Source: an uncultured Gammaproteobacteria bacterium
Lineage (GTDB): Bacteria; Patescibacteriota; Microgenomatia; Daviesbacterales; UBA10151
Direction of reading: 5' to 3'
Assembly: GCA_964522265.1 (NCBI GenBank)
Contig: CAZFVS010000012.1
Span: 3,501-17,118, forward strand
DNA length: 13,618 nucleotides
Shown piece by piece: positions 180 through 13,618 of the stretch (position 1 is the first letter of the stretch; every line of letters begins with the position of its first letter). The notes beneath the pieces were generated by a model. The model made no database searches, was not told the origin of the DNA, and saw nothing but the letters and a program-made list of their open reading frames with translations. Position numbers and translations under genes: made by a program.

Positions 180-550
180 ACAGGATAATGCGGATGGATT
201 TTTCCCCTAGGAAGCCTTTTTAAGTGGTGGATTTTATCAAGCTCGTTTTGTAATATTACTGCGTGTTCTTGATAGGCATTGTATTGCCTGTTGTGTTTGA
301 TCAGCTGTCTGATAGTTAATGATCCCCAAAGCAGTGCTGTAATCCCAAATGCTGCTGTGTCAAGGTAGTTGGCTGATTCAAAACTTCTGCCTATACCGAA
401 GGTACCCAGAGATGTTGTGATCATTCCGGTTGAGGCAAGAATCGTAGGTGCCCATTTTTCGTAAAATTTAAGCGAACCATTTTTAAACCTGTTTAGCAAA
501 GGAGTTTTTTGTGCCTCTGATCCTGGTCTGTCATATTCATTACTAACCAT
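176..550 (-). CDS. Hypothetical small membrane protein (124 aa, two predicted hydrophobic helices)
   Basis: ATG-initiated ORF with two hydrophobic segments ([21 protein letters not shown] and [16 protein letters not shown]). A TATAAT box sits 8 nt upstream of the ATG. I recognise no family. Confidence 0.5.
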
Positions 551-558
551 ATAATGAA

Positions 559-586
559 ATTATACCCCCAAATTATTACTTGACAA
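559..586 (-). promoter_or_regulatory. Putative sigma70 promoter for the 124-aa ORF (TTGTCA, 16-nt spacer, TATAAT)
   Basis: The minus strand reads cTTGTCAagtaataatttgggggTATAATttcattatATG. The -10 box ends 8 nt before the ATG and there is no SD. Confidence 0.45.
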
Positions 587-608
587 GCCGTCTGTACCGG
601 TTTATAAC
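580..608 (+). promoter_or_regulatory. Putative sigma70 promoter P1 upstream of rpsF (TTGACA, 17-nt spacer, TATAAC)
   Basis: Perfect -35 TTGACA at 580-585, a 17-nt spacer, and TATAAC at 603-608. Confidence 0.5.
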
Positions 609-617
609 AGAACAGGG

Positions 618-646
618 TTGATTAGACCTTGAAAAATTAGTATAAT
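618..646 (+). promoter_or_regulatory. Putative sigma70 promoter P2 of rpsF (TTGATT, 17-nt spacer, TATAAT), positioned for a leaderless transcript
   Basis: TTGATT at 618-623, a 17-nt spacer, and consensus TATAAT at 641-646. The ATG at 655 lies only 8 nt past the -10 box and has no SD. Confidence 0.5.
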
Positions 647-654
647 TACCAAAT

Positions 655-936
655 ATGCCAACTTATGCATTAACAATATTGCTTAAAAATGACCTTGATG
701 AAGATAAACGCAGGGCAGTCCTGGATGCCGTCAAAGAGCAAATTGGACATGACGGTAAACTCATAAAAGAGGATCTTTGGGGAAGCAGAAACTTGGTTTA
801 TCCGATCAAACATCAAAACAGAGCTTACTTTGTACTGTTGGAATTTGAAAATGATCCCGGCAGTATTTTATCGCTTGACAAAAATATTAAACTAAACGAA
901 GATATTATCCGTTATCTGTTGTTGAGAAAGGATTAA
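655..936 (+). CDS. rpsF: 30S ribosomal protein S6
   Basis: The 93-aa product has the S6 pattern (YALTILLK ... WGSRNLVYPIKHQNRAYFVLLEF). It sits in the conserved rpsF-ssb-rpsR order. Confidence 0.9.
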   Translation: MPTYALTILLKNDLDEDKRRAVLDAVKEQIGHDGKLIKEDLWGSRNLVYPIKHQNRAYFVLLEFENDPGSILSLDKNIKLNEDIIRYLLLRKD

Positions 937-938
937 TA

Positions 939-1484
939 GTGGCAAGCAGAAGTTGGAATAAAGTAGAACTGATTGGTAATTTAACAAGAGATCCCGAACT
1001 CCGTTACACTCCTTCGGGGGCTGCAGTGGTGTCCTTTACTATTGCTACCAACAGGACATATGTTTCAGAAGGAGAGCGGAAAGAGGAGGCTGATTTCCAT
1101 CGGGTTATTGCCTGGAATAAACTGGCTGAACTCTGCAGCCAGCTCTTGAAAAAAGGAAACAGGGTATTTGTTTCAGGAAGGCTGCAAAACCGCTCCTGGG
1201 AAGGGCAGGATGGTCAACCCCGCAACATTACCGAAATTGTAATCGAAGACATGATACTGCTTACCTCCAAGAACGGTTCAATGGAATCAGATTATACCCA
1301 GTCCCGGTCTGCTGCCAAAGCCCAACCAGCTGAAAATGCCATTGGGGTCAAACAGGAAGAGTCTAAAACCGAGCCTGCTGAAAAGGTACCGGATGTACCT
1401 GCGGCAGAAGAAGCAATACCGGCAGAAGATACCCAAACTCCTAAAAAAGAAGATCCAGGAGATCTGGATGACCTGCCTTTCTAA
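939..1484 (+). CDS. ssb: Single-stranded DNA-binding protein
   Basis: GTG start 2 nt after the rpsF stop, with GAAAGGA upstream. The N-terminus is an OB fold (NKVELIGNLTRDPELRYTPSGAAVVSFTIATNR ... FHRVIAWNKLAE). It is followed by a Pro/Glu-rich tail ending in the acidic SSB tip DLDDLPF. Confidence 0.93.
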   Translation: MASRSWNKVELIGNLTRDPELRYTPSGAAVVSFTIATNRTYVSEGERKEEADFHRVIAWNKLAELCSQLLKKGNRVFVSGRLQNRSWEGQDGQPRNITEIVIEDMILLTSKNGSMESDYTQSRSAAKAQPAENAIGVKQEESKTEPAEKVPDVPAAEEAIPAEDTQTPKKEDPGDLDDLPF

Positions 1485-1515
1485 ATTCCAATATTTATAA
1501 AAAACAAGCAAGTTG

Positions 1516-1544
1516 TTGCTAATTCCTTCCCTGCAAGGTACAAT
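1516..1544 (+). promoter_or_regulatory. Putative internal sigma70 promoter for rpsR (TTGCTA, 17-nt spacer, TACAAT)
   Basis: TTGCTA at 1516-1521, a 17-nt spacer, and TACAAT at 1539-1544. The ATG at 1553 is 8 nt downstream and has no SD. Confidence 0.4.
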
Positions 1545-1552
1545 ATTATATC

Positions 1553-1867
1553 ATGCCGGTAAAACTTAAGATAACTAAAAAAATAGAACCCGCTAGTAGT
1601 AAGCCTGTAGTGGTGCACGATGGGGAGCAAGCAGCAGAGAAAACCGTGTCTGTACCCGTGAGAACAAAGAAAGGCTGTTTTTTTTGCCAGAATAAAAAAG
1701 AACCGACATTTGAGGACTCTGTTACTCTAAGGAGGTTTATCTCAGACCGCTCAAGGATTGTACCGAAGTTAAGAACTGGAGTTTGTAGTAAACACCAGCG
1801 TTATCTCACCCGCCAGATCAAATATGCCCGTCATCTAGCCCTTTTGCCGTTTGTACCTAGCGTCTGA
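1553..1867 (+). CDS. rpsR: 30S ribosomal protein S18 with an N-terminal extension of about 40 aa
   Basis: S18 core CFFCQNKKEPTFEDSVTLRRFISDRSRIVPKLRTGVCSKHQRYLTRQIKYARHLALLPF. Conserved position after ssb. Ends in TGA at 1865-1867. Confidence 0.9.
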   Translation: MPVKLKITKKIEPASSKPVVVHDGEQAAEKTVSVPVRTKKGCFFCQNKKEPTFEDSVTLRRFISDRSRIVPKLRTGVCSKHQRYLTRQIKYARHLALLPFVPSV

Positions 1868-3082
1868 GTGAAAAAGAGACTGTGTCAATACTGTTACCCA
1901 TCAAGACGAAAAAATCACCTGAGCTTGCATGTTGAATATTACCTGGAGAAAATTCCCAGGATTAATCTTGGGTTGCAGGTTTTTGATAATTTGGTTTTGA
2001 ATGTACTCTCTTTCCTGAAAATCTTAAATTTCTCTGAGACAATAGATGAAACTTTATTTCACAACCGCAGCCTGATATTTTGGCATGAGGCAAAAAAGAG
2101 GAATCTTAAACTGGCTGCCCTGAAATTTTTAGGAAGAACAATTCAGGAGTTTCGGTTGGATTATGAGGGGAGGAAGTATTATTTTGAAGGCACACCTTTA
2201 AATATTTTTCCCAGCCCAAAATTCTTGGATAACAAAATCAAAGTTAAAAAATTTTTACAAAAAAAAGGTATACCGGTAGCTTCAGGTGAACTGTTTACCG
2301 ACTGCAAAAAAGCTTTAGAATTTGCAAAAAAGATTGGACTCCCGGTAGTAATTAAACCAAATACAGGATCTTTAAGCCATCATGTTATTTGTCCTGTAGA
2401 CTCTTTTCCGGCTCTTTCTAAGGCATTTAAGATTGTGAAAAGTTATAGACCGGATTTTATTGTTGAGAAATATACAGCAGGAAATTTATACAGGATCAGT
2501 GTTATAGGTAAAAAATATGTTTTTGTCTGTAAAAAAGACCGGGCTAATATTTTGGGGAATGGCTACGCCAATATAGACCAGCTTATCCAAACCAAAAATG
2601 GAGATATAAACCGCGGTGAAACGAGGCAACTGAATACTACCTTGCACAAGATTCCGCAGGATAATGTACTCCTTAAAAATCTTAAATCTCAAGGATTAAC
2701 TCTGGGGTCCATCCCTCCTAAGGATAAGAAAATCTATCTGCAGGATAAATATATCTTGTCAACAGGTTGTGATGTGGTGGGTTGTACCGGGGTGATAAAT
2801 CCGGCAAATAAAAAACTTTTCTTAAAAATTGCCGGACTGTTTAATACAGATATCCTGGGTATCGACTTTATTTGTCAGGATATAAGAAGAAACTACCTCA
2901 GCCAAACGAGTGTGGTTTTAGAAACTAATAGCCTGCCGTATATTGATATGCACATGTTTCCGTCTGAAGGTAAGCCAGATGATGTAGCAAAAATTAGCTG
3001 GGATTTTATACTCGGAAAACTGGATAAGCAAAAAAATAAAAAATTTTGTACTATTAATAAGTACCGAAAAATCGATGCCTAA
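1868..3082 (+). CDS. Stand-alone ATP-grasp ligase resembling the cyanophycin synthetase N+G domains, with no Mur-ligase domain
   Basis: Motifs seen by eye: DNKIKVKKFLQKKGIPVASG, KKIGLPVVIKPNTGSLSHHV, DFIVEKYTAGNLYRISVIG, RANILGNGYANIDQLIQTKNGDINRG, ILSTGCDVVGCTGVINPANKK, DILGIDFI and VLETNSLP. There is no in-frame ATG until about residue 360, so the start must be non-ATG. GTG at 1868 directly abuts the rpsR TGA, but the exact start is uncertain. Confidence 0.8.
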   Translation: MKKRLCQYCYPSRRKNHLSLHVEYYLEKIPRINLGLQVFDNLVLNVLSFLKILNFSETIDETLFHNRSLIFWHEAKKRNLKLAALKFLGRTIQEFRLDYEGRKYYFEGTPLNIFPSPKFLDNKIKVKKFLQKKGIPVASGELFTDCKKALEFAKKIGLPVVIKPNTGSLSHHVICPVDSFPALSKAFKIVKSYRPDFIVEKYTAGNLYRISVIGKKYVFVCKKDRANILGNGYANIDQLIQTKNGDINRGETRQLNTTLHKIPQDNVLLKNLKSQGLTLGSIPPKDKKIYLQDKYILSTGCDVVGCTGVINPANKKLFLKIAGLFNTDILGIDFICQDIRRNYLSQTSVVLETNSLPYIDMHMFPSEGKPDDVAKISWDFILGKLDKQKNKKFCTINKYRKIDA

Positions 3083-3686
3083 CTTAACAGGAGTTTTTAA
3101 CAAATTGAAAGATTTGGATCAGATACCAGCTATTGTTGTCAACCCCCGGGTGAAAAATAAGGGGCAGTCAGAATCCTTGGAAAATTTTATTGGTAATAGA
3201 GTTTTATACCCCCAGACCATATCAGCCAGTTTTGAGGATATGGAGATTGATTTTGCAATCTTGAAGGAGAGTATAAGAAGAGACCCCGGGCTCTTTTTCA
3301 ACAGTATCAGCAAAAAGATTATTTTGCCTTCTGATTTTATATCAAGATTTCCTCCTGTTTCAAAATTGATAACTGTGGTTGTCCAGGTACTGGTTCTTCC
3401 CGGAGTAACTATGGTTTATATAAAAAAAAACATCAGTATAATTTTGGTAGGCAGCATCATCAACATCAGGAAGCTACCCATATTTAGTAAATTAATAAAA
3501 GACCAAGTATTAATAGATCTGATGGTGGGTGATATTGCAACTAAAGCCCGTTTAAATGAGATCATTATTTTACCCCTCAAGGAGCATCACATTAAGGTTA
3601 AGATTAGTAATTCAGAGGAGATATTTGTTGCCGGTGGAGAATTAGGGTTGGTTTTGGATCTTAGATTGGAGGAAAAGCAAACGTGA
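3075..3686 (+). CDS. Hypothetical protein (203 aa), translationally coupled to the ATP-grasp gene
   Basis: The ATG at 3075 overlaps the ATP-grasp stop by 8 nt (ATGCCTAA). The ORF is continuous and ends at TGA 3684-3686. It has a hydrophobic central stretch (LITVVVQVLVLPGVTMVYI). I recognise no family. Confidence 0.6.
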   Translation: MPNLTGVFNKLKDLDQIPAIVVNPRVKNKGQSESLENFIGNRVLYPQTISASFEDMEIDFAILKESIRRDPGLFFNSISKKIILPSDFISRFPPVSKLITVVVQVLVLPGVTMVYIKKNISIILVGSIINIRKLPIFSKLIKDQVLIDLMVGDIATKARLNEIIILPLKEHHIKVKISNSEEIFVAGGELGLVLDLRLEEKQT

Positions 3687-4834
3687 TATTTGGAGCAAAC
3701 ATAACTTCGCAGCTTGTTGCCAATGTTCGTACAAGAATACAGGTCAACAGGGTGACTCATGTTAAAAGATCGCTTATCGGAGAAGGAAAATTAACTGTGA
3801 GGGTTGGTGAGGAAGTACAACCACAGGATATTTTAGGTCAGTCGCTGCTTAGTGCAGGATTTTCTGCTGTTAATATAGCCAAAATGTTGAATGTAAGGCC
3901 CTCAGAGGGTGGAAAGTATATACAAAGGCCTACCGGTAAAGTAATTTACAAGGGGGAGCTTTTGGCGCTTAAAAAAGAAATCTTCGGGAAAAAAGTAGTA
4001 GTAGCACCTACCGATGGTTTGATTGAAACTTATGATGCCAAAACCGGTGAATTACGGTTACGATTTTTATCAAAAGAGATCCCCCTGACTGCAGGTATTA
4101 TTGGGATAGTAGATAATGTCAACTACGTGACGAATGAGGTAATCATAAAAACTATGGTTACTGAAATTTTTGGTATATTAGGTTCGGGGAGAGAACGGAG
4201 TGGAGTTTTAAATATCCTGGGAGCTCCGGGCGATTTAGTGCATCCAACCCAAATTCAAACCCAGATGCATCAACAGATAATACTTACAGGAGGTTTGGTT
4301 GACAGTTCTATTCTCAGAAAAGCTGCCGGGTTTGGTCTGAGTGGTATTGTTTGCGGAGGGCTTAATGTTGTTGATTATAGATCTATTATGGGCAGCATAA
4401 ACCCCGCAAAGAGGGTAGGAACTGATGTAGGGATTTCCATAGTGGTTACAGAAGGTTTTGGCTTGATTCCGGTAGGCAGTGATATCTTTAATCTGATGAG
4501 GCCGTTTGGCGGTAAATTTGTATTTCTGAATGGGAATATTAATCAGGTATTATTGCCAACAGCAACTGCTGATAGTATACTGACACTGCGCAAAAGCAGT
4601 TTGCCTCTGGAGAAAGTCCATGATATGGTTCCTGAAGTTGAATTAGGGGAGATCAAAATAGGGCTAAAGGTGCGGATTATCTGGCCTCCATTTATGGGTG
4701 CACAGGGGAAGGTTATATCGATTGATCAGACACCAACGGTTTTAGAATCAGGGATATCAACGATTTTACTGACCTTAGAAACAACAAAACAAAAACTCAA
4801 AATACCATATACCAATATAGAAATTATAAAGTAG
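3683..4834 (+). CDS. Hypothetical protein (383 aa) with lipoyl/barrel-sandwich-hybrid-like motifs and a C-terminal KOW-like motif
   Basis: GTG at 3683 overlaps the upstream stop (GTGA), with GGAGGA 9 nt upstream. Motifs: GKLTVRVGEEVQPQDILGQ and KKVVVAPTDGLIETYD (split barrel-sandwich hairpins), IILTGGLVDSSILRKAAGFGLSGIVCGG, and GLKVRIIWPPFMGAQGKVISID (KOW/SH3-like). I see no signal peptide. Function is unknown. Confidence 0.75.
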   Translation: MIFGANITSQLVANVRTRIQVNRVTHVKRSLIGEGKLTVRVGEEVQPQDILGQSLLSAGFSAVNIAKMLNVRPSEGGKYIQRPTGKVIYKGELLALKKEIFGKKVVVAPTDGLIETYDAKTGELRLRFLSKEIPLTAGIIGIVDNVNYVTNEVIIKTMVTEIFGILGSGRERSGVLNILGAPGDLVHPTQIQTQMHQQIILTGGLVDSSILRKAAGFGLSGIVCGGLNVVDYRSIMGSINPAKRVGTDVGISIVVTEGFGLIPVGSDIFNLMRPFGGKFVFLNGNINQVLLPTATADSILTLRKSSLPLEKVHDMVPEVELGEIKIGLKVRIIWPPFMGAQGKVISIDQTPTVLESGISTILLTLETTKQKLKIPYTNIEIIK

Positions 4835-4838
4835 CCAG

Positions 4839-6041
4839 ATGAAATACCTACAAAAGATTAACCTGACATCGATTATAGTATATCTGCTGATTTTTAGTTT
4901 GGGCTGGCAGCTTGGACATCTTGACCTGTCTAGATTTAAAGTTAAAAACCTTAAACCTCCTCAGGATAAACAGACATTAGATTTTAAACTATTTTGGGAT
5001 ACTTGGGATCTGGTTTCCCGGGAATATGTAGATAAAAAAGCCATCGACATTCAGAAAATGTATTACGGGGCGATATCGGGGATGGTTGCATCGCTTGGTG
5101 ATCCATACACCTTTTTTCTTCCTCCGGAAATTCAAAAATCCACCAAAGAAGCATTGAGCGGCAGTTTTGAAGGTGTGGGTATTCAGCTGGGGTTTAATAA
5201 GGAGAAAAGGCTGGTTGTAATAGCTCCGCTCAAGGATACACCTGCAGCAAAAAACGGGATAAAAGCTGGGGATTTAATTCTAAAGATTGAGGGAAAAGAT
5301 ACTGTAAATATAACCCTTCAGGAAGCTGTAACATTAATCAGAGGGCCTAAAGGTACTAAAGTTGGTCTTGAAGTCTATCACGAAGGGGATTCAAAATCCA
5401 CCACCATTTCCCTAACAAGAGATACAATCATAGTCAAAAGTGTTGAGTTTGAGTCTAAGCTGACCAAGGGGGGTAAAAAAGTCGCTTATATTAAATTGTC
5501 AAGTTTTGGGGAAAGAACCCAGGAAGAATGGAATAAGGTCATCAGCGAAGCTGCTGCTAATAATCCTTCAGGAATTGTATTAGATCTTCGTAATAACCCC
5601 GGCGGGTTTTTAGAAGAAGCGGTTTTTATCTCATCAGAATTCATCCCTTCAGGGGATATAGTAATACAGGAAGATGGGCAAGGCGGGAGAAAAGCCTTAC
5701 CCGTTAAGCGGACTGGTAAGTTTTTAAAACAGCCTTTGGTGGTGCTTATTAACAAAGGTTCTGCTTCTGCAGCAGAAATTGTGGCTGGGGCAATACAGGA
5801 TTATAAAAGAGGGAAACTGGTAGGTGAAGAGTCGTTTGGTAAAGGTACGATACAGTCAGCTAAGGATTTAGCGGGAGAGACAGGGATTCATATTACAACA
5901 GCCAAATGGTTGACGCCAAACGGAAGATGGATTCACAACATTGGGCTGACACCTGATGTGAAAGTTGAAGAGCCGGTTATTTCAGATCAGACCCAAAAAG
6001 ACCCCCAGCTTGATCAGGCTTTGGAACTGTTGGATCGCTGA
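4839..6041 (+). CDS. ctpA: S41 family C-terminal processing peptidase (Ctp/Prc-like) with a PDZ domain and an N-terminal membrane anchor
   Basis: FEGVGIQLG ... VVIAPLKDTPAAKNGIKAGDLILKIEG (PDZ); VLDLRNNPGGFLEEAV; LINKGSASAAEIVAGAIQD ... GEESFGKGTIQ (Ser/Lys dyad region). The N-terminal hydrophobic segment is LTSIIVYLLIFSLGW. Confidence 0.92.
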   Translation: MKYLQKINLTSIIVYLLIFSLGWQLGHLDLSRFKVKNLKPPQDKQTLDFKLFWDTWDLVSREYVDKKAIDIQKMYYGAISGMVASLGDPYTFFLPPEIQKSTKEALSGSFEGVGIQLGFNKEKRLVVIAPLKDTPAAKNGIKAGDLILKIEGKDTVNITLQEAVTLIRGPKGTKVGLEVYHEGDSKSTTISLTRDTIIVKSVEFESKLTKGGKKVAYIKLSSFGERTQEEWNKVISEAAANNPSGIVLDLRNNPGGFLEEAVFISSEFIPSGDIVIQEDGQGGRKALPVKRTGKFLKQPLVVLINKGSASAAEIVAGAIQDYKRGKLVGEESFGKGTIQSAKDLAGETGIHITTAKWLTPNGRWIHNIGLTPDVKVEEPVISDQTQKDPQLDQALELLDR

Positions 6042-6065
6042 CTCCCTGCAAAGATATGGTAAAAT
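6038..6065 (+). promoter_or_regulatory. Putative extended -10 promoter for htrA (CTGACT, 16-nt spacer, TGgTAAAAT)
   Basis: CTGACT at 6038-6043 overlaps the ctpA stop. TG at 6057-6058 is followed by TAAAAT at 6060-6065. The ATG at 6075 is 9 nt downstream and has no SD. Confidence 0.4.
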
Positions 6066-6074
6066 AATACTTTG

Positions 6075-7196
6075 ATGAATGAGAAATTAAAGTTTTTTTT
6101 AATCGCTGTCCTGATAGGAATTATAGCAGGGGTAGCCGCCTTTAGGCTGGCTGTTTTAGGTAAGCTGCCCTTTAAGATTAACCTGCCTCAAGGAATACAA
6201 ACTCAGATACAAAATACCCAAACACGCACCGTTGTACAAGAAGAGAATGCAGTGATTTCAACTGTGGAGAAAACTTCCCCTTCGGTGGTAGCGATTGGTG
6301 TTACCCAGAGGATTGTTAACCCCTTTGACCCTTTCTCCATCCCCAAAAACCAGCAGTCAACTATTGGGACTGGATTTGTGGTTTCAGAAAAAGGGATTAT
6401 TGTTACCAACCGTCATGTTGTTTCGGACACAAGTGTTAAATATTCGGTGGTCACAAAAGAAGGCAAAAAACTTGAGATTAATAAAATTTACCGGGATCCA
6501 AATCTTGATCTAGCTTTAGTGCAGGTTAGTAGCGTGGATGGATTGAAGGCACTGGAATTGGGTGATTCATCTAAACTGAGGGTGGGTCAGACTGTCATAG
6601 CTATCGGTAATGCTTTGGGCAGATTTGATAATACAGTTACTACCGGAGTTGTTTCGGGTTTAGGCCGTTCTGTTTCAGCAGGCGATCCTTTTGGGGGTGA
6701 TACTGAGAGGTTGGATAATTTGATCCAAACTGATGCTGCAATTAACCCCGGTAACTCCGGGGGGCCGCTTTTAAATTCTGCCGGGCAGGTGATTGGGGTG
6801 AATGTAGCAACAACAGAAGGGGCCCAGAATATTGGTTTTGCGATTCTGATCAATCCGGTCAAAGAGCTGGTAGATGAGTTTAATAAAAACGGTAGTATCT
6901 CCAGGGCTTTTTTGGGTATCAGATACCGTTTAATCACGCGGGATATCGCTCTCCTCAATGAAGTTCCACAGGGGGCATATATTCAGGAGGTCATTCAGGG
7001 ATCACCCGCAGAAAAAGCCGGGATCAATGCTGGTGATATTGTCACTAAAATTGATGGTCAGGCAGTGAATGAAGAAAGCAAAATCTCGAGTATCATCCAA
7101 AACAAAAAAGTCGGACAAACTGTTTCTTTGGAGGTTTGGACAGACGGTAAAACCAGGACAGTTACAGCAACTTTGGCAGAATCTTCAAACCAATAA
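6075..7196 (+). CDS. htrA: HtrA/DegP family S1C serine protease with one PDZ domain and an N-terminal anchor
   Basis: Catalytic triad context: GTGFVVSEKGIIVTNRHVV (His), DLALVQV (Asp), TDAAINPGNSGGPLLN (Ser). PDZ: GSPAEKAGINAGDIVTKIDGQ. The ORF track starts at TTG 6072, but I prefer the adjacent ATG at 6075. Confidence 0.92.
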   Translation: MNEKLKFFLIAVLIGIIAGVAAFRLAVLGKLPFKINLPQGIQTQIQNTQTRTVVQEENAVISTVEKTSPSVVAIGVTQRIVNPFDPFSIPKNQQSTIGTGFVVSEKGIIVTNRHVVSDTSVKYSVVTKEGKKLEINKIYRDPNLDLALVQVSSVDGLKALELGDSSKLRVGQTVIAIGNALGRFDNTVTTGVVSGLGRSVSAGDPFGGDTERLDNLIQTDAAINPGNSGGPLLNSAGQVIGVNVATTEGAQNIGFAILINPVKELVDEFNKNGSISRAFLGIRYRLITRDIALLNEVPQGAYIQEVIQGSPAEKAGINAGDIVTKIDGQAVNEESKISSIIQNKKVGQTVSLEVWTDGKTRTVTATLAESSNQ

Positions 7197-7197
7197 T

Positions 7198-7977
7198 TTA
7201 AAATTTAACTATTAAAATCCGGTTCTTCCGGCTTAAATCTTTTTTAATTTCGATTTCTGAATTGGGAAAATATCTTTCTGCTTCTGCTGTTGCTAAATCA
7301 CCTTGATTCTCGTCTATTTCACAAATAAGATATTTTATACCTCCACATCGGAGGTGCCAGCTCAGTTGTGAGAATAATTTTCTGTAAAGCGCAAATCCGT
7401 CTTCACCGCCATCCAGGGCAATTTTTGGTTCCCATTCAGTTACCATCGGATCAATATGCATAAGACTGGTTGTTGGGATGTAAGGGAGATTGGCGACAAT
7501 TACATCAGGGGCTTTTTTAAAATTTGGCAGTAGATCTGACTCTAAAAAAATGATCTGCTTTTCGACATGGTGGAATTTGGCATTTTTTTGAGCAATTTCC
7601 AGAGCTTTTTGGGAAACATCAGTAGCGATGATTTTAGCGTTTGGCAGATTCTTGGTAATTGCTATGGCAATACAGCCAGAGCCTGTGCCAAGGTCAAGGA
7701 TGGTTAGGGATTGCTTCGCTGCGCTCGCAATGGCGCCTGCACTGAGCGTAGTCGAAGTGTCATTGCGAGGAGTCTTTGACGACGAAGCAATCTCTTTTTC
7801 TGCCCTCAATACCTCATCTACCAAAAGTTCTGTTTCAGGACGGGGGATTAATACATCCGGAGTCAGGTAAAATCTAAGTTTGTAAAACTCTGTCCAACCT
7901 CGCTGGTATTGTTTAGGAGGATCAGATTTCTTCTGGATTCTTTGGATCTCTGATTTTAAAGTAGCACCTTTTTTCAT
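7198..7977 (-). CDS. prmC: Release-factor glutamine N5-methyltransferase PrmC/HemK, with a short N-terminus and a 28-aa in-frame insert
   Basis: VLIPRPETELLVDEVL, SAM motif ILDLGTGSGCIAIAI, and catalytic motif IVANLPYIP (NLPY instead of NPPY). It lies immediately downstream of prfA. I prefer ATG at 7977 over the TTG at 7980 used by the track. Confidence 0.88.
   Translation of the reverse strand: MKKGATLKSEIQRIQKKSDPPKQYQRGWTEFYKLRFYLTPDVLIPRPETELLVDEVLRAEKEIASSSKTPRNDTSTTLSAGAIASAAKQSLTILDLGTGSGCIAIAITKNLPNAKIIATDVSQKALEIAQKNAKFHHVEKQIIFLESDLLPNFKKAPDVIVANLPYIPTTSLMHIDPMVTEWEPKIALDGGEDGFALYRKLFSQLSWHLRCGGIKYLICEIDENQGDLATAEAERYFPNSEIEIKKDLSRKNRILIVKF
7709..7792. repeat. 84-bp GC-rich nested palindromic element embedded in frame in prmC (REP/MITE-like)
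   Basis: The outer arms GATTGCTTCG (7709-7718) and CGAAGCAATC (7783-7792) are perfect reverse complements. So are the inner arms CTCGCAATG (7724-7732) and CATTGCGAG (7761-7769). My hand count gives about 55% GC, against clearly AT-rich flanks. The length is exactly 28 codons. Confidence 0.7.
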
Positions 7978-9281: not shown

Positions 9282-9644
9282 TTACTGCACTTCTTCAGAA
9301 TCATCAAGTAATGCTTTTTCCTCCATCCACGTTTTCCCTTCCTCTTTGCAAGCTTTGAGAGATACAGAAGCATCGCCTATTACGCTTCTTACGACATTTT
9401 CAACAATGCAATCTCTGTAGGTAACCAGATCTGTGTCTGCCCGAAGCTGACTTATCGTTTGATCTGTTTCCGCCTGTTTTGCAACGACTAAATCCAGCCC
9501 TTCGTTCGTCTTGGTGACCTGCTGTATAATACTGTTTGCATCTAGGTTCTGTACAGTTTCTGTATTGCGGTATGTTTGGAAAGCTGCATAACCGCTAAAT
9601 ATCAAAGTTAATGCCAAACCCGCCCTTTCGATTGTAAGTGCCAT
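9282..9644 (-). CDS. Hypothetical N-terminally anchored or secreted small protein (120 aa)
   Basis: ATG at 9644 is preceded by AAGGGGGTGA (SD) about 7 nt upstream. The N-terminal hydrophobic segment is [15 protein letters not shown], and there are two Cys residues. I recognise no family. The track starts it at TTG 9650. Confidence 0.5.
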
Positions 9645-9680
9645 TTTCAATCACCCCCTTCTTTAATTTATCCTATTGTT

Positions 9681-12033: not shown

Positions 12034-12759
12034 TTAGTTTTTAACAAATAATACCCGGTTCCTATTTTCAAAATCCAAGCCGTTTATGGCTTGATTTGAA
12101 ATATTAAACCTTTGACAACCCCTACAAACCTCGACCTTTGGGCCTAAAACCTGTTGCATACCAAACCTTTGGGCAACAGCAACCATTGGTGACTTTGCAT
12201 TAGTACGCATTACCACAGGTAGTTCCAATTTTCCTGCCTGTTCAAACAAGCCTTTTACAAGTTGGTTGCTTAAACCCCTATTCCGGTATGGTTTTTTTAT
12301 CCCAACTTCTGAAATATAAAACAGCCTATCTAAAACCCCATTCAGGCTTAATATGCTTGTCAATTTTTTCTGCATATCTGAAGTTTTATATTTTTCAGCA
12401 ATCAGGGCAGTTGAATTCTCTGGATAACCCAAACCAAAGCCCACAAATCCGCCGGGGTAATCCGGTAAATTCCTAAATTTTTCTTTAGGATCCCTCAGCA
12501 CCAGGATTAATGCACCTTCCCTCCCGCTGTCACTTAGTAGATAGCTGCGGGTTTCTTTATAAGGATATGCTTCCTGCAAGATGTCTCCACAATTTATACA
12601 AATTTGCTCCTTGGAAGTTTTCAGTCCATAATACTTTCCACATCCGCTGCAAATTGTTTTTTCATTCCAGGGCGGGTCGGCAAAAACTTCTTGGTATGTC
12701 AAAACCAGTTCGGTTGTATCTACTTCCGGTCTGAATTCATACATATTAATCTTTTCCAT
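12034..12759 (-). CDS. GNAT-like N-acyltransferase with an inserted CxxC-x16-CxxC zinc ribbon and a third C-terminal CxxC
   Basis: Acetyl-CoA motif-A-like segment FYISEVGIKKPYRNRGLSNQLVKGLFEQA. Cys motifs CSGCGKYYGLKTSKEQICINCG and CRGCQRF. ATG at 12759 has a strong SD (GAGGAGGaacATG). The track's TTG at 12780 is less likely. Confidence 0.65.
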   Translation of the reverse strand: MEKINMYEFRPEVDTTELVLTYQEVFADPPWNEKTICSGCGKYYGLKTSKEQICINCGDILQEAYPYKETRSYLLSDSGREGALILVLRDPKEKFRNLPDYPGGFVGFGLGYPENSTALIAEKYKTSDMQKKLTSILSLNGVLDRLFYISEVGIKKPYRNRGLSNQLVKGLFEQAGKLELPVVMRTNAKSPMVAVAQRFGMQQVLGPKVEVCRGCQRFNISNQAINGLDFENRNRVLFVKN

Positions 12760-13618
12760 GTTCCTCCTCACCCCCTCCAAAGCTGTGGATTAAGGCAGAA
12801 TATTTGCCTTCAGCTTTCAAAAGATTTGGTATAAAAATATACTCATTTTCTTTGTGGGCCATCTCCAGATTACCGGCGCCGAATGTTATACAGGGTATTT
12901 TATTGAAGACCTGCCAAAGCATTTGGGTATCTATAAACCCAAAAGACCCGAGGCCTAAGTAATTTTTGCCTGTAATTTTTTCAATCTTTTTTAGCCTATT
13001 TTTTGGTGTTATCCATAATCCAAAATCATGTCTAACTTTATAATTTATTATTTTTAAACCCTCTTTTTTGATCAAACTTTTAAATATTTCAACCACCCTT
13101 TTTGCATTTAATTTTGGGTCAGCAGGCCTAATATCCAAAACAAATTCAGCTATGTCTGCAACATTATTTCCTTCCCTGCCAATCTCTTTGCCTAAATCCA
13201 AACCGCCTTGAATATAAGCTAAATTACAGCTGGTTTTCCCAAGCATATTATCCTGGTACTTTTCCATAATATTTTTTAGTTCATTTATGGCATTTATACT
13301 GCCCAGGATGGCATTTTTACCATTTTGGGGTTTTGAAGCATGTGCTGTCTTCCCTTTGACTTGAAAATTTATTTCAATTAAGCCCCTGCAACCATTGCCG
13401 ATACTAAGGTTGTACCCATCTGCAGAAATAATCAGTTTTGGGTTAATTTTACACTTGTACTCATCAATAAATTTTTTCATCCCCAAAAAATCATATTCTT
13501 CATCAACATACAAAAGCAGCATTAAGCCTTTGGTTTTTTCAGCTTTTTCTAAAGCACAAATTAGGGCTGCCAAAGAGCCTTTCATGTCTGTTGCTCCAAG
13601 CCCAAAAAGTTTTTCACC
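12746..13618 (-). CDS. M20 family metallopeptidase/deacylase (ArgE/DapE-like); N-terminus lies outside the window
   Basis: The frame stays open to the window edge (GEKLFGLGATDMKGSLAALI ... = GxGxxDMKG motif). Also LLYVDEEYDFLG (metal-binding Glu-Glu region) and a C-terminal EMAHKENEYI (His ligand context). Stop at 12746-12748. Confidence 0.85.
   Translation of the reverse strand, partial: GEKLFGLGATDMKGSLAALICALEKAEKTKGLMLLLYVDEEYDFLGMKKFIDEYKCKINPKLIISADGYNLSIGNGCRGLIEINFQVKGKTAHASKPQNGKNAILGSINAINELKNIMEKYQDNMLGKTSCNLAYIQGGLDLGKEIGREGNNVADIAEFVLDIRPADPKLNAKRVVEIFKSLIKKEGLKIINYKVRHDFGLWITPKNRLKKIEKITGKNYLGLGSFGFIDTQMLWQVFNKIPCITFGAGNLEMAHKENEYIFIPNLLKAEGKYSALIHSFGGGEEEHGKD

Follow-up and report, generated by a model that had tools for sequence, protein, structure and literature searches.

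What do two overlapping genes encode when neither product matches a curated protein family, and with which other genes do their products act? The question is raised by a 13,618-nucleotide (nt) stretch of contig CAZFVS010000012.1, hereafter the window, in which open reading frames (ORFs) of 203 and 383 amino acids (aa) directly follow an ATP-grasp ligase gene (Table 1). The window derives from a Candidatus Daviesbacteria-type genome (Patescibacteria/Microgenomates, within the Candidate Phyla Radiation, CPR); the 383-aa protein is 100% identical to one NCBI protein, and its named relatives are all from Daviesbacteria. The original prediction treated the ligase and the two proteins as a three-gene module and assigned neither of the latter to a family. 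The data described here favor a different answer, in which the 203-aa protein (the stub) and the 383-aa protein (the partner) together represent a reduced form of a widespread module, composed of a GlmL/MutL-like ASKHA ATPase and a partner with barrel-sandwich, alpha/beta, and KOW regions.

Direct reading of the window sequence places the ATG of the 203-aa ORF at 3075, such that it overlaps the ATP-grasp gene by 8 nt (ATGCCTAA; stop TAA at 3080-3082), and the GTG of the 383-aa ORF at 3683, such that it overlaps the 203-aa ORF by 4 nt (GTGA; stop TGA at 3684-3686). Both ORFs, both overlaps, and the GGAGGA site preceding the second junction are exactly as originally described. Comparison with other CPR genomes covered 17 distinct loci (the window, L105, L001, 10 other Daviesbacteria-type loci, and the more distant L018, L102, L103, and L104), using blastp for all fetched loci and gene calls on further contigs. 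The distance between stub and partner genes is −4 to +2 nt in eight of the nine CPR loci with gene calls, and +45 nt in the remaining one.

Homology of the 203-aa protein

The 203-aa window protein has no match in Pfam or NCBIfam, consistent with the original failure to name it; nevertheless, its homology to GlmL/MutL-like ASKHA proteins can be established through its relatives. An alignment of 65 sequences of the stub family contains the near-invariant motifs ENxxGNRxLYPQT, RF, and GGxLGLxxDxR, with conservation from residue 1 onward. Because conservation begins at residue 1, the ATG at 3075 is the true start of the gene, and the 193-aa call at NCBI is too short. Compared with its closest relative, L105, the gene has a ratio of nonsynonymous to synonymous substitution rates (dN/dS) of 0.23; together with the motifs and the conserved start, this bears out the frame as a coding sequence, a point on which the original prediction depended.

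Weak matches to PF13941 (MutL/GlmL) were found in 18 of the 65 family members. In seven relatives that were re-scanned, the N-terminal ~60 residues match positions 297-354 of the 450-position model, at scores of 12-16 bits that fall short of the curated cut-off of 27; one family member is named "glutamate mutase L" by NCBI. Further evidence is provided by P0277, a 995-aa protein recovered by an exhaustive profile search seeded with the 383-aa family, in which a complete PF13941 domain (residues 12-485, E = 3e-128) is fused to a partner-like region (residues 629-993). The P0277 cluster has 12 members, and the 995-aa form occurs on more than 15 contigs. In an hhalign comparison of the stub family with P0277, stub residues 18-203 correspond to residues 329-577 of the fusion protein (probability 98%, E = 1e-13), including a common C-terminal motif, GGxxGLxxDxR. 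Additionally, a hidden Markov model (HMM) of the Daviesbacteria stubs matches 47 independent GlmL-like ORFs (~600 aa) over residues ~320-590, the full-sequence E values ranging from 1e-6 to 5e-22.

These alignments indicate which part of the ATPase is missing. The stub begins at a position equivalent to ~residue 320 of 605 in full-length forms, after both phosphate-binding motifs (DxGSTTTK and DIGGATTD), neither of which has a counterpart in the stub alignment. In relatives without the ATP-grasp gene, 18-109 nt lie between rpsR and the stub gene; because this is the only space available, the missing N-terminal part cannot be encoded there. On the evidence of its sequence, the 203-aa protein is a truncated GlmL-like (PF13941) ASKHA protein that lacks the entire N-terminal ATPase part. 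Genes for B12-dependent mutases (glmS/glmE or oraS/oraE) are absent from the window and from every fetched CPR locus.

The AlphaFold2 model of the stub is of high confidence (mean predicted local distance difference test score, pLDDT, 93.3) and divides into a helical part (residues ~7-105) and a beta domain (residues 111-195). Residues 18-105 form four main helices and one strand, and align with the NK(M)IRPTT(I/V)PQ region of full-length GlmL-like proteins. The beta domain corresponds to the C-terminal extension by which the ~600-aa GlmL-like proteins exceed the ~450-460 positions of the GlmL models, and its GGxLGLxxDxR motif aligns with GGxxGxIxDxRGRP of full-length forms. Searches of the model against PDB folds returned no match (the best hit, HIV protease at E = 0.1, was dismissed as meaningless), and a profile search of PDB sequences with the stub family returned nothing. 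Neither the stub nor the partner has a predicted signal peptide or membrane helix.

Full-length GlmL-like ATPases outside the CPR

The fusion in P0277 reflects a broader association. Of the 49 metagenome loci from outside the CPR in which the sequence extends 1.9 kb or more upstream of the partner gene, 34-35 (~71%) have a GlmL-like gene of ~600-620 aa as the immediate upstream neighbor; in the CPR, a stub homolog lies directly upstream of the partner gene in every locus with upstream DNA. The order is reversed at one locus, L021 (1100-6371), where the partner gene comes first. The GlmL-like protein of L021 has 1304 aa, with an N-terminal extension that weakly matches CglD/thrombospondin-type-3-like repeats.

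The full-length companions match the GlmL, Or-4, and TIGR01319 models over ~450 positions, at 215-240 bits as compared with a cut-off of 475. In companions of 599-605 aa the profile matches stop near residue 470, leaving a C-terminal extension of ~130-150 aa. The GlmL-like proteins found with the partner fail to reach the cut-offs set for true GlmL and for Or-4, and accordingly form a separate subfamily.

Clustering of neighboring ORFs identified a recurrent seven-gene cluster outside the CPR, each component of which is present in 20-37 loci (Table 1). It encodes a small cytoplasmic protein (~110 aa), the GlmL-like protein, the partner, DUF6754 (PF20539), and three families without a Pfam model; DUF6754 and these three families all have predicted membrane helices. 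Genes for a DAGK-type kinase (DAGK_cat) and a CdsA-type protein (CTP_transf_1) are often found upstream of the cluster. The N-terminal GlmL-like half, the membrane proteins of the cluster, and the kinase and CdsA-type genes were all absent from the CPR loci examined. A literature search found no papers on PF13941 or DUF6754, and the GlmL/MutL papers that were found do not treat this module.

Several loci show variations in gene content or architecture. Two pairs of GlmL-like and partner genes occur in tandem in L058 (360-7125) and L068 (266-7122), with one long partner (~450 aa) containing a duplicated barrel-sandwich region and one short (~375 aa). In thirteen non-CPR loci with no GlmL-like gene nearby, an unassigned ORF of ~300 aa, possibly outer-membrane-like, comes after the partner gene, and in twelve of these accA (PF03255) is next. 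Among Daviesbacteria-type sequences, P0197 (507 aa), recovered by the profile search, joins the first ~110 residues of a stub, without the beta domain, to a full partner; the fusion may be genuine or may be an artefact of assembly or of a frameshift.

Structure and distribution of the 383-aa partner

The partner belongs to a large family for which there is no Pfam or NCBIfam model. A word-index search identified 353 homologs, whereas the exhaustive profile search recovered 2448 cluster representatives (at 50% identity) with E ≤ 1e-3, of which 1469 had E ≤ 1e-10; a metagenome scan found at least 600 matching stretches. Among its named carriers are one Roseiflexaceae and one Dormibacteraeota genome, and neighboring genes suggest that the family also occurs in Bacillota (SpoIIT neighbor) and Bacteroidota-like lineages (Por_Secre_tail neighbor). 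Database entries are named "hypothetical protein" or "NusG"; the Joint Genome Institute (JGI) calls P0065, P0115, P0380, and others "transcription antitermination factor NusG", a misnomer driven by the KOW motif. In the window, the partner gene has a dN/dS of 0.15 against L105, at 80% amino acid identity.

The AlphaFold2 model of the partner (mean pLDDT 90.7) and domain-level hits agree with the three-part architecture that had been read from the sequence: a split barrel-sandwich hybrid, a Gly-rich alpha/beta domain, and a C-terminal KOW-like barrel. For the first region, the relatives P0281 and P0310 pass the Pfam cut-offs for Biotin_lipoyl_2, RnfC_N, and Biotin_lipoyl. In the second, strands alternate with helices; a profile of this domain searched against the PDB returned only nonsignificant hits (E = 0.02-0.5), to the GG-type phosphate-binding loops found in TIM-barrel enzymes, and these hits were rejected as evidence. 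For the third, the Pfam KOW match is weak (E = 0.054), the family profile matches uL24 and Spt5 among PDB sequences at E = 0.004-0.03, and Foldseek matches this part to uL24/eL26 and phage KOW proteins with probability 1.0. Foldseek found no global match for the whole model in the PDB, returning KOW proteins, weak similarity of the alpha/beta domain to protease-associated (PA) domains, and a weak hit to BesA; a viral structure library gave KOW matches only; and the profile search of PDB sequences added to the KOW matches only a marginal hit to the FakA C-terminal region.

Positions conserved throughout the family include R29, P109, a G164-x-x-G-x-G-x4-G174 run, G225, E257-G-F-G260, R331, P375, N378, and E380. 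Among 130 family members, E257, G258, F259, and G260 are conserved in 88-100%, and P375, N378, and E380 at 91-95%. Judging from this pattern, the GG and TEGFG motifs could form a ligand-binding site. By comparison, no lysine in residues 1-190 reaches 90% conservation among 54 relatives, and none anywhere in the partner reaches 85% among the 130 members. The original prediction had pointed to the tip of the barrel hairpin as a possible site of lipoyl- or biotinyl-type attachment, by which the protein would act as a swinging-arm carrier; in the model, this position is occupied by a ~50-residue insert with only two short helices, and the absence of a conserved lysine speaks against such a carrier.

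Other candidate roles for the partner were considered and rejected. A B12-binding (GlmS-like) fold in the central domain is not indicated by a PF02310 match, a DxHxxG motif, or any match to such a fold. A role as biotin carboxyl carrier protein, prompted by the proximity of accA in twelve loci, again lacks the necessary conserved lysine. Membership of an Rnf/Nqr-like complex was set aside, because none of the membrane proteins encoded in the extended cluster could be assigned to an Rnf or Nqr family.

Synteny and reduction within the CPR

In the CPR, the pair is part of a conserved block consisting of rpsF-ssb-rpsR, the stub gene, the partner gene, an S41 protease gene, and usually an HtrA-like protease gene. 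In many bacteria the place following rpsF-ssb-rpsR is held by rplI (ribosomal protein L9), which was not seen in any CPR locus examined. Two alternative roles draw on this context. The first is that the pair works with the two membrane-anchored proteases, as a cytoplasmic factor for the regulation or assembly of envelope proteolysis. The order stub-partner-S41 is invariant across the CPR loci examined, in lineages with stubs of 200 to 385 aa; the S41 gene always follows the partner homolog directly, often with an overlap of 1-4 nt, and the S41 and HtrA-like proteins each have one N-terminal hydrophobic segment. PspC-domain genes also adjoin the partner gene in two unrelated non-CPR loci (L017, 9819-10013, minus strand; L020, 458-1018, minus strand). 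However, in 85 non-CPR loci no S41 or HtrA gene adjoins the partner gene (a single, distant trypsin/PDZ ORF was seen in L042), and the adjacency in the CPR may be inherited gene order. Furthermore, the stub and partner lack export signals and would therefore occupy a different compartment from the protease domains. On balance, a role dedicated to these proteases appears unlikely.

The second is that the 383-aa protein is a KOW-type RNA- or ribosome-binding factor of the rpsF-ssb-rpsR operon, similar to NusG. Its C-terminal barrel, its conserved place directly after these genes in the CPR, and the JGI naming of several members would be consistent with this. Yet the protein has no NGN domain, scoring 12.9 bits on TIGR01956 against a cut-off of 150, and outside the CPR its gene adjoins GlmL-like and membrane-protein genes rather than ribosomal genes. 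As KOW/SH3-like barrels are common protein-binding modules, the barrel itself does not call for a role in RNA binding, and we consider this explanation improbable.

The position of the ATP-grasp gene bears on the module originally proposed, in which the ligase, the 203-aa protein, and the 383-aa protein would act together and the barrel-sandwich protein would be a carrier or scaffold for the ligase product. The ATP-grasp protein does resemble peptide-forming ligases (the cyanophycin synthetase G domain and GshAB): it matches TIGR02068 with E = 7.6e-63, though over profile positions 212-465 only and at 213 bits as compared with a cut-off of 850, and in the PDB it comes closest to a RimK-domain ATP-grasp protein (8fxh) and to cyanophycin synthases (E = 1e-30 to 4e-32). 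The stop/start overlaps in the window (8 nt) and in its closest relative, L105 (13 nt), favor a functional link, as does purifying selection on all three genes (dN/dS 0.15-0.23; 0.17 for the ATP-grasp gene against L105). The ATP-grasp gene, which has no unusual guanine-cytosine content, is nonetheless present in only three of the 17 CPR loci (the window, L105, and L001), and in L001 it is separated from the stub gene by a 123-nt spacer. In the 10 other Daviesbacteria-type loci a gap of just 18-109 nt separates rpsR from the gene for the 203-aa homolog, and L018, L102, L103, and L104 likewise lack the ligase gene. The three genes are thus not conserved together across genomes. Across phyla, the conserved companion of the pair is instead a GlmL-like ATPase, the 203-aa protein is confidently homologous to the C-terminal part of such ATPases rather than to anything connected with ligase chemistry, and the barrel-sandwich region has no conserved lysine. 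The ligase module is accordingly highly improbable, and the ATP-grasp gene is best read as a subclade-specific, recent insertion between rpsR and the stub gene, outside the conserved pair. Stand-alone ATP-grasp proteins of 380-404 aa are found in a single Daviesbacteria subclade (the window, 1868-3082, plus strand; L001, 6125-7267; L105, 1-888).

Remnants of the GlmL-like protein in the same synteny vary in length, from 385 aa in L104 and 348 aa in L103 to 252 aa in L102, 255 aa in L018, and 189-213 aa in Daviesbacteria; the partner has 350-400 aa throughout. The two longest remnants (L104 and L103) keep a DxGxS/T-like N-terminal motif and are missing ~220 core residues, and a faint PF13941 match is on record for that of L103. 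Though a series of 385, 348, ~250, and ~200 aa looks like stepwise gene decay, the possibility that the 203-aa ORF is a functionless relic, with the 383-aa protein alone being of consequence, is scarcely credible given the dN/dS of the stub (0.23), the invariant motifs common to stubs (65 clusters) and full-length proteins, a confidently predicted fold (pLDDT 93), and the retention of start, length, and coupling in every Daviesbacteria-type locus.

Other features of the window

Coordinates are collected in Table 1. In a scan of positions 400-7400, promoter-like and terminator-like sites were not above chance, and intergenic gaps from rpsF to htrA are 0-68 nt; rpsF through htrA is therefore plausibly a single long co-directional cluster. 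An Rfam search gave no match, nor did tblastn against plasmids and phages; PADLOC defence-system models matched neither the three window proteins nor their non-CPR counterparts. Three minus-strand ORFs have no Pfam family: a Cys-rich ORF of 248 aa (12034-12780) and ORFs of 122 aa (9282-9650) and 124 aa (176-550). Next to the first, an ORF at 12746-13585 (minus strand) encodes part of an M20 peptidase; its 5′ end is probably outside the window.

Table 1. Features of the window and of related loci; positions are those of the window unless a locus is named.
Feature	Position	Strand	Description and basis
rpsF	655-936	+	Conserved upstream neighbor (blastp synteny with related loci)
ssb	939-1484	+	Conserved upstream neighbor (blastp synteny with related loci)
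rpsR	1553-1867	+	Pfam S18 match; blastp synteny with related loci
ATP-grasp gene	1868-3082	+	Resembles cyanophycin synthetase G domain
203-aa ORF (stub)	3075-3686	+	C-terminal third of a GlmL/MutL-like ASKHA protein
Stub residues 18-105	3126-3389	+	Helical segment, last part of the ASKHA fold; carries ENxxGNRxLYPQT
Stub residues 111-195	3405-3659	+	Beta domain with GGxLGLxxDxR at its end; candidate docking domain
GGAGGA, Shine-Dalgarno-like	3668-3673	+	Within the stub gene, 9 nt before GTG of the 383-aa gene; direct sequence reading
383-aa ORF (partner)	3683-4834	+	Large family accompanying or fused to GlmL-like ATPases
Partner residues 12-180	3716-4222	+	Split barrel-sandwich hybrid and further beta structure (AlphaFold2)
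Partner residues 199-303	4277-4591	+	Gly-rich alpha/beta domain; family-wide GG and TEGFG motifs
Partner residues 319-381	4637-4825	+	KOW/SH3-like barrel; conserved C-terminal PxxNxE motif
S41 (CtpA/CtpB-like) protease gene	4839-6041	+	Pfam
HtrA-like protease gene	6072-7196	+	Pfam
prmC, prfA, rpmE, EamA transporter gene, hisS	After HtrA-like gene	−	prfA, rpmE, and hisS named from syntenic locus L001
Seven-gene cluster	L019 7642-14722; L053 4182-10973		Non-CPR
Seven-gene cluster, further loci	L022, L031, L037, L038, L046, L047, L050, L051, L055, L061, L062, L066, L073, L080, L084, L085, L089, L090, L092, L098		Non-CPR
Partner gene in GlmL-less context	L030, L036, L040, L044, L054, L063, L069, L070, L071, L081, L083, L091, L100		Thirteen loci

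Comparison with known systems

True GlmL genes lie between glmS and glmE. The GlmL protein is described as a chaperone that reactivates B12-dependent glutamate mutase (PMC4682846). The likeness between the stub and the GlmL/MutL (PF13941, NF040745, TIGR01319) and Or-4 (NF040744) families is one of homology, to the C-terminal part of an ASKHA family; however, the locus has no mutase genes and the stub lacks the ATPase core, and the full-length companions outside the CPR differ in scoring far below the family cut-offs and in carrying the additional C-terminal extension. Diol dehydratase reactivase and glutamate mutase L both belong to the actin superfamily (PMC5597319). The DdrA/DdrB and GdrA/GdrB reactivases, in which an ASKHA chaperone works with a small subunit, are comparable only by analogy, as actin-fold ATPases with an adjacently encoded non-ATPase subunit; the comparison draws on no similarity of sequence or fold between the 383-aa protein and DdrB, and the pair described here has no B12 enzyme nearby and is missing the ATPase half.

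Resemblances of the partner to known proteins are confined to single regions. The split barrel-sandwich in its N-terminal half recalls the N-domains of RnfC and NqrA, biotinyl/lipoyl carriers, and the HlyD/AcrA/BesA adaptors. In the case of RnfC/NqrA, matches to the barrel-sandwich half-motif occur in relatives of the partner only, and Pfam detects no flavin, NADH, or iron-sulfur domains; unlike lipoyl and biotinyl carriers, the partner has no conserved cofactor lysine; and unlike HlyD/RND adaptors, it has no signal peptide, membrane anchor, hydrophobic N-terminus, or alpha-hairpin (Foldseek probability to BesA, 0.12-0.23). Its C-terminal ~60 residues are KOW/SH3-like, as in NusG/Spt5 and uL24/eL26, but the NGN domain is absent and the remainder is unrelated. 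For the neighboring ATP-grasp protein, residues ~120-380 align with the G domain of cyanophycin synthases (CphA1/CphA2; also GshAB-type); it differs from these in being a stand-alone protein of 404 aa without the Mur-ligase-like M domain, with matches that cover the G-domain region only.

Proposed origin and function of the pair

Homology of the stub, the P0277 fusion, and the gene order outside the CPR lead us to favor the view that the pair is a reduced GlmL-like ATPase module. Under this model, the ATPase gene would have shrunk to its last ~200 codons, leaving a short helical remnant of the ASKHA fold and the C-terminal beta domain; the N-terminal ~320 residues, both phosphate-binding motifs included, would have been lost while the partner kept its full length. 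The two proteins would be made in fixed proportion from their overlapping cistrons and would bind each other, most likely via the beta domain of the stub. The resulting complex would be incapable of hydrolyzing ATP through the ASKHA fold, and may serve as an adaptor or scaffold. Phyla that have the full-length ATPase would use it to drive the same partner, frequently alongside four membrane proteins, on the cytoplasmic side of the membrane. The ancestral ATPase probably remodeled either the partner or the partner's client, as analogy with GlmL (PMC4682846) and with further ASKHA accessory proteins (PMC5597319) suggests.

The steps of this model differ in strength. Homologies, truncation, fusion, frequencies of gene adjacency, and predicted folds are all established by the data. 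A physical complex of stub and partner is probable, given the P0277 fusion, the adjacency of the genes in different phyla, and the overlap of the two cistrons, and we infer that the beta domain of the stub is the docking surface. That the complex works without ASKHA-type ATP hydrolysis is somewhat more likely than its opposite, based on searches of the DNA flanking each locus, to at most ~10 kb on each side. A role for the pair at the membrane or envelope is hinted at by the membrane-protein neighbors in other phyla and by the membrane-anchored proteases encoded downstream, a link confined to the CPR; we propose it tentatively, as one of several possibilities and not the leading one.

Several observations weigh against these interpretations. 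Daviesbacteria genomes could encode a full-length GlmL-like protein, or the membrane components, beyond the regions searched. For approximately 30% of the partner genes outside the CPR, a GlmL-like gene is missing from the surrounding 6 kb; the partner is therefore able to occur away from the ATPase, and might act alone. The link to the membrane comes from gene neighborhoods in other phyla only. Finally, the conserved Gly-rich motifs of the partner (GG and TEGFG) look more like those of a ligand-binding or catalytic protein than of a passive scaffold.

Implications

These data replace a proposed ligase and carrier with a traceable evolutionary origin for the pair; what is new is the partner family and the variant without an ATPase, rather than any ligase system. 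The partner defines a large protein family, with 2448 clusters, no Pfam or NCBIfam model, no structural match for the whole protein, and no paper found, and the association of this family with a distinct GlmL-like ATPase subfamily and a seven-gene cluster provides a concrete module for study in organisms that are easier to work with than the CPR. Within the CPR, the series of 385, 348, ~250, and ~200 aa represents a natural case of an ATPase cut down to a noncatalytic piece beside an intact partner, and points to the functionally essential surface of the ATPase. A bolder proposal, which we regard as doubtful but possible, is that the pair represents the minimal core, without its ATPase, of a widespread and as yet undescribed machine comprising the GlmL-like ATPase, the partner, the small protein, and four membrane proteins. 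If so, an ASKHA ATPase would power a new membrane-associated system, often encoded beside genes of lipid metabolism (the DAGK-type kinase and CdsA), and the retention in the CPR of the docking stub and partner alone would reveal the indispensable part of the machine.

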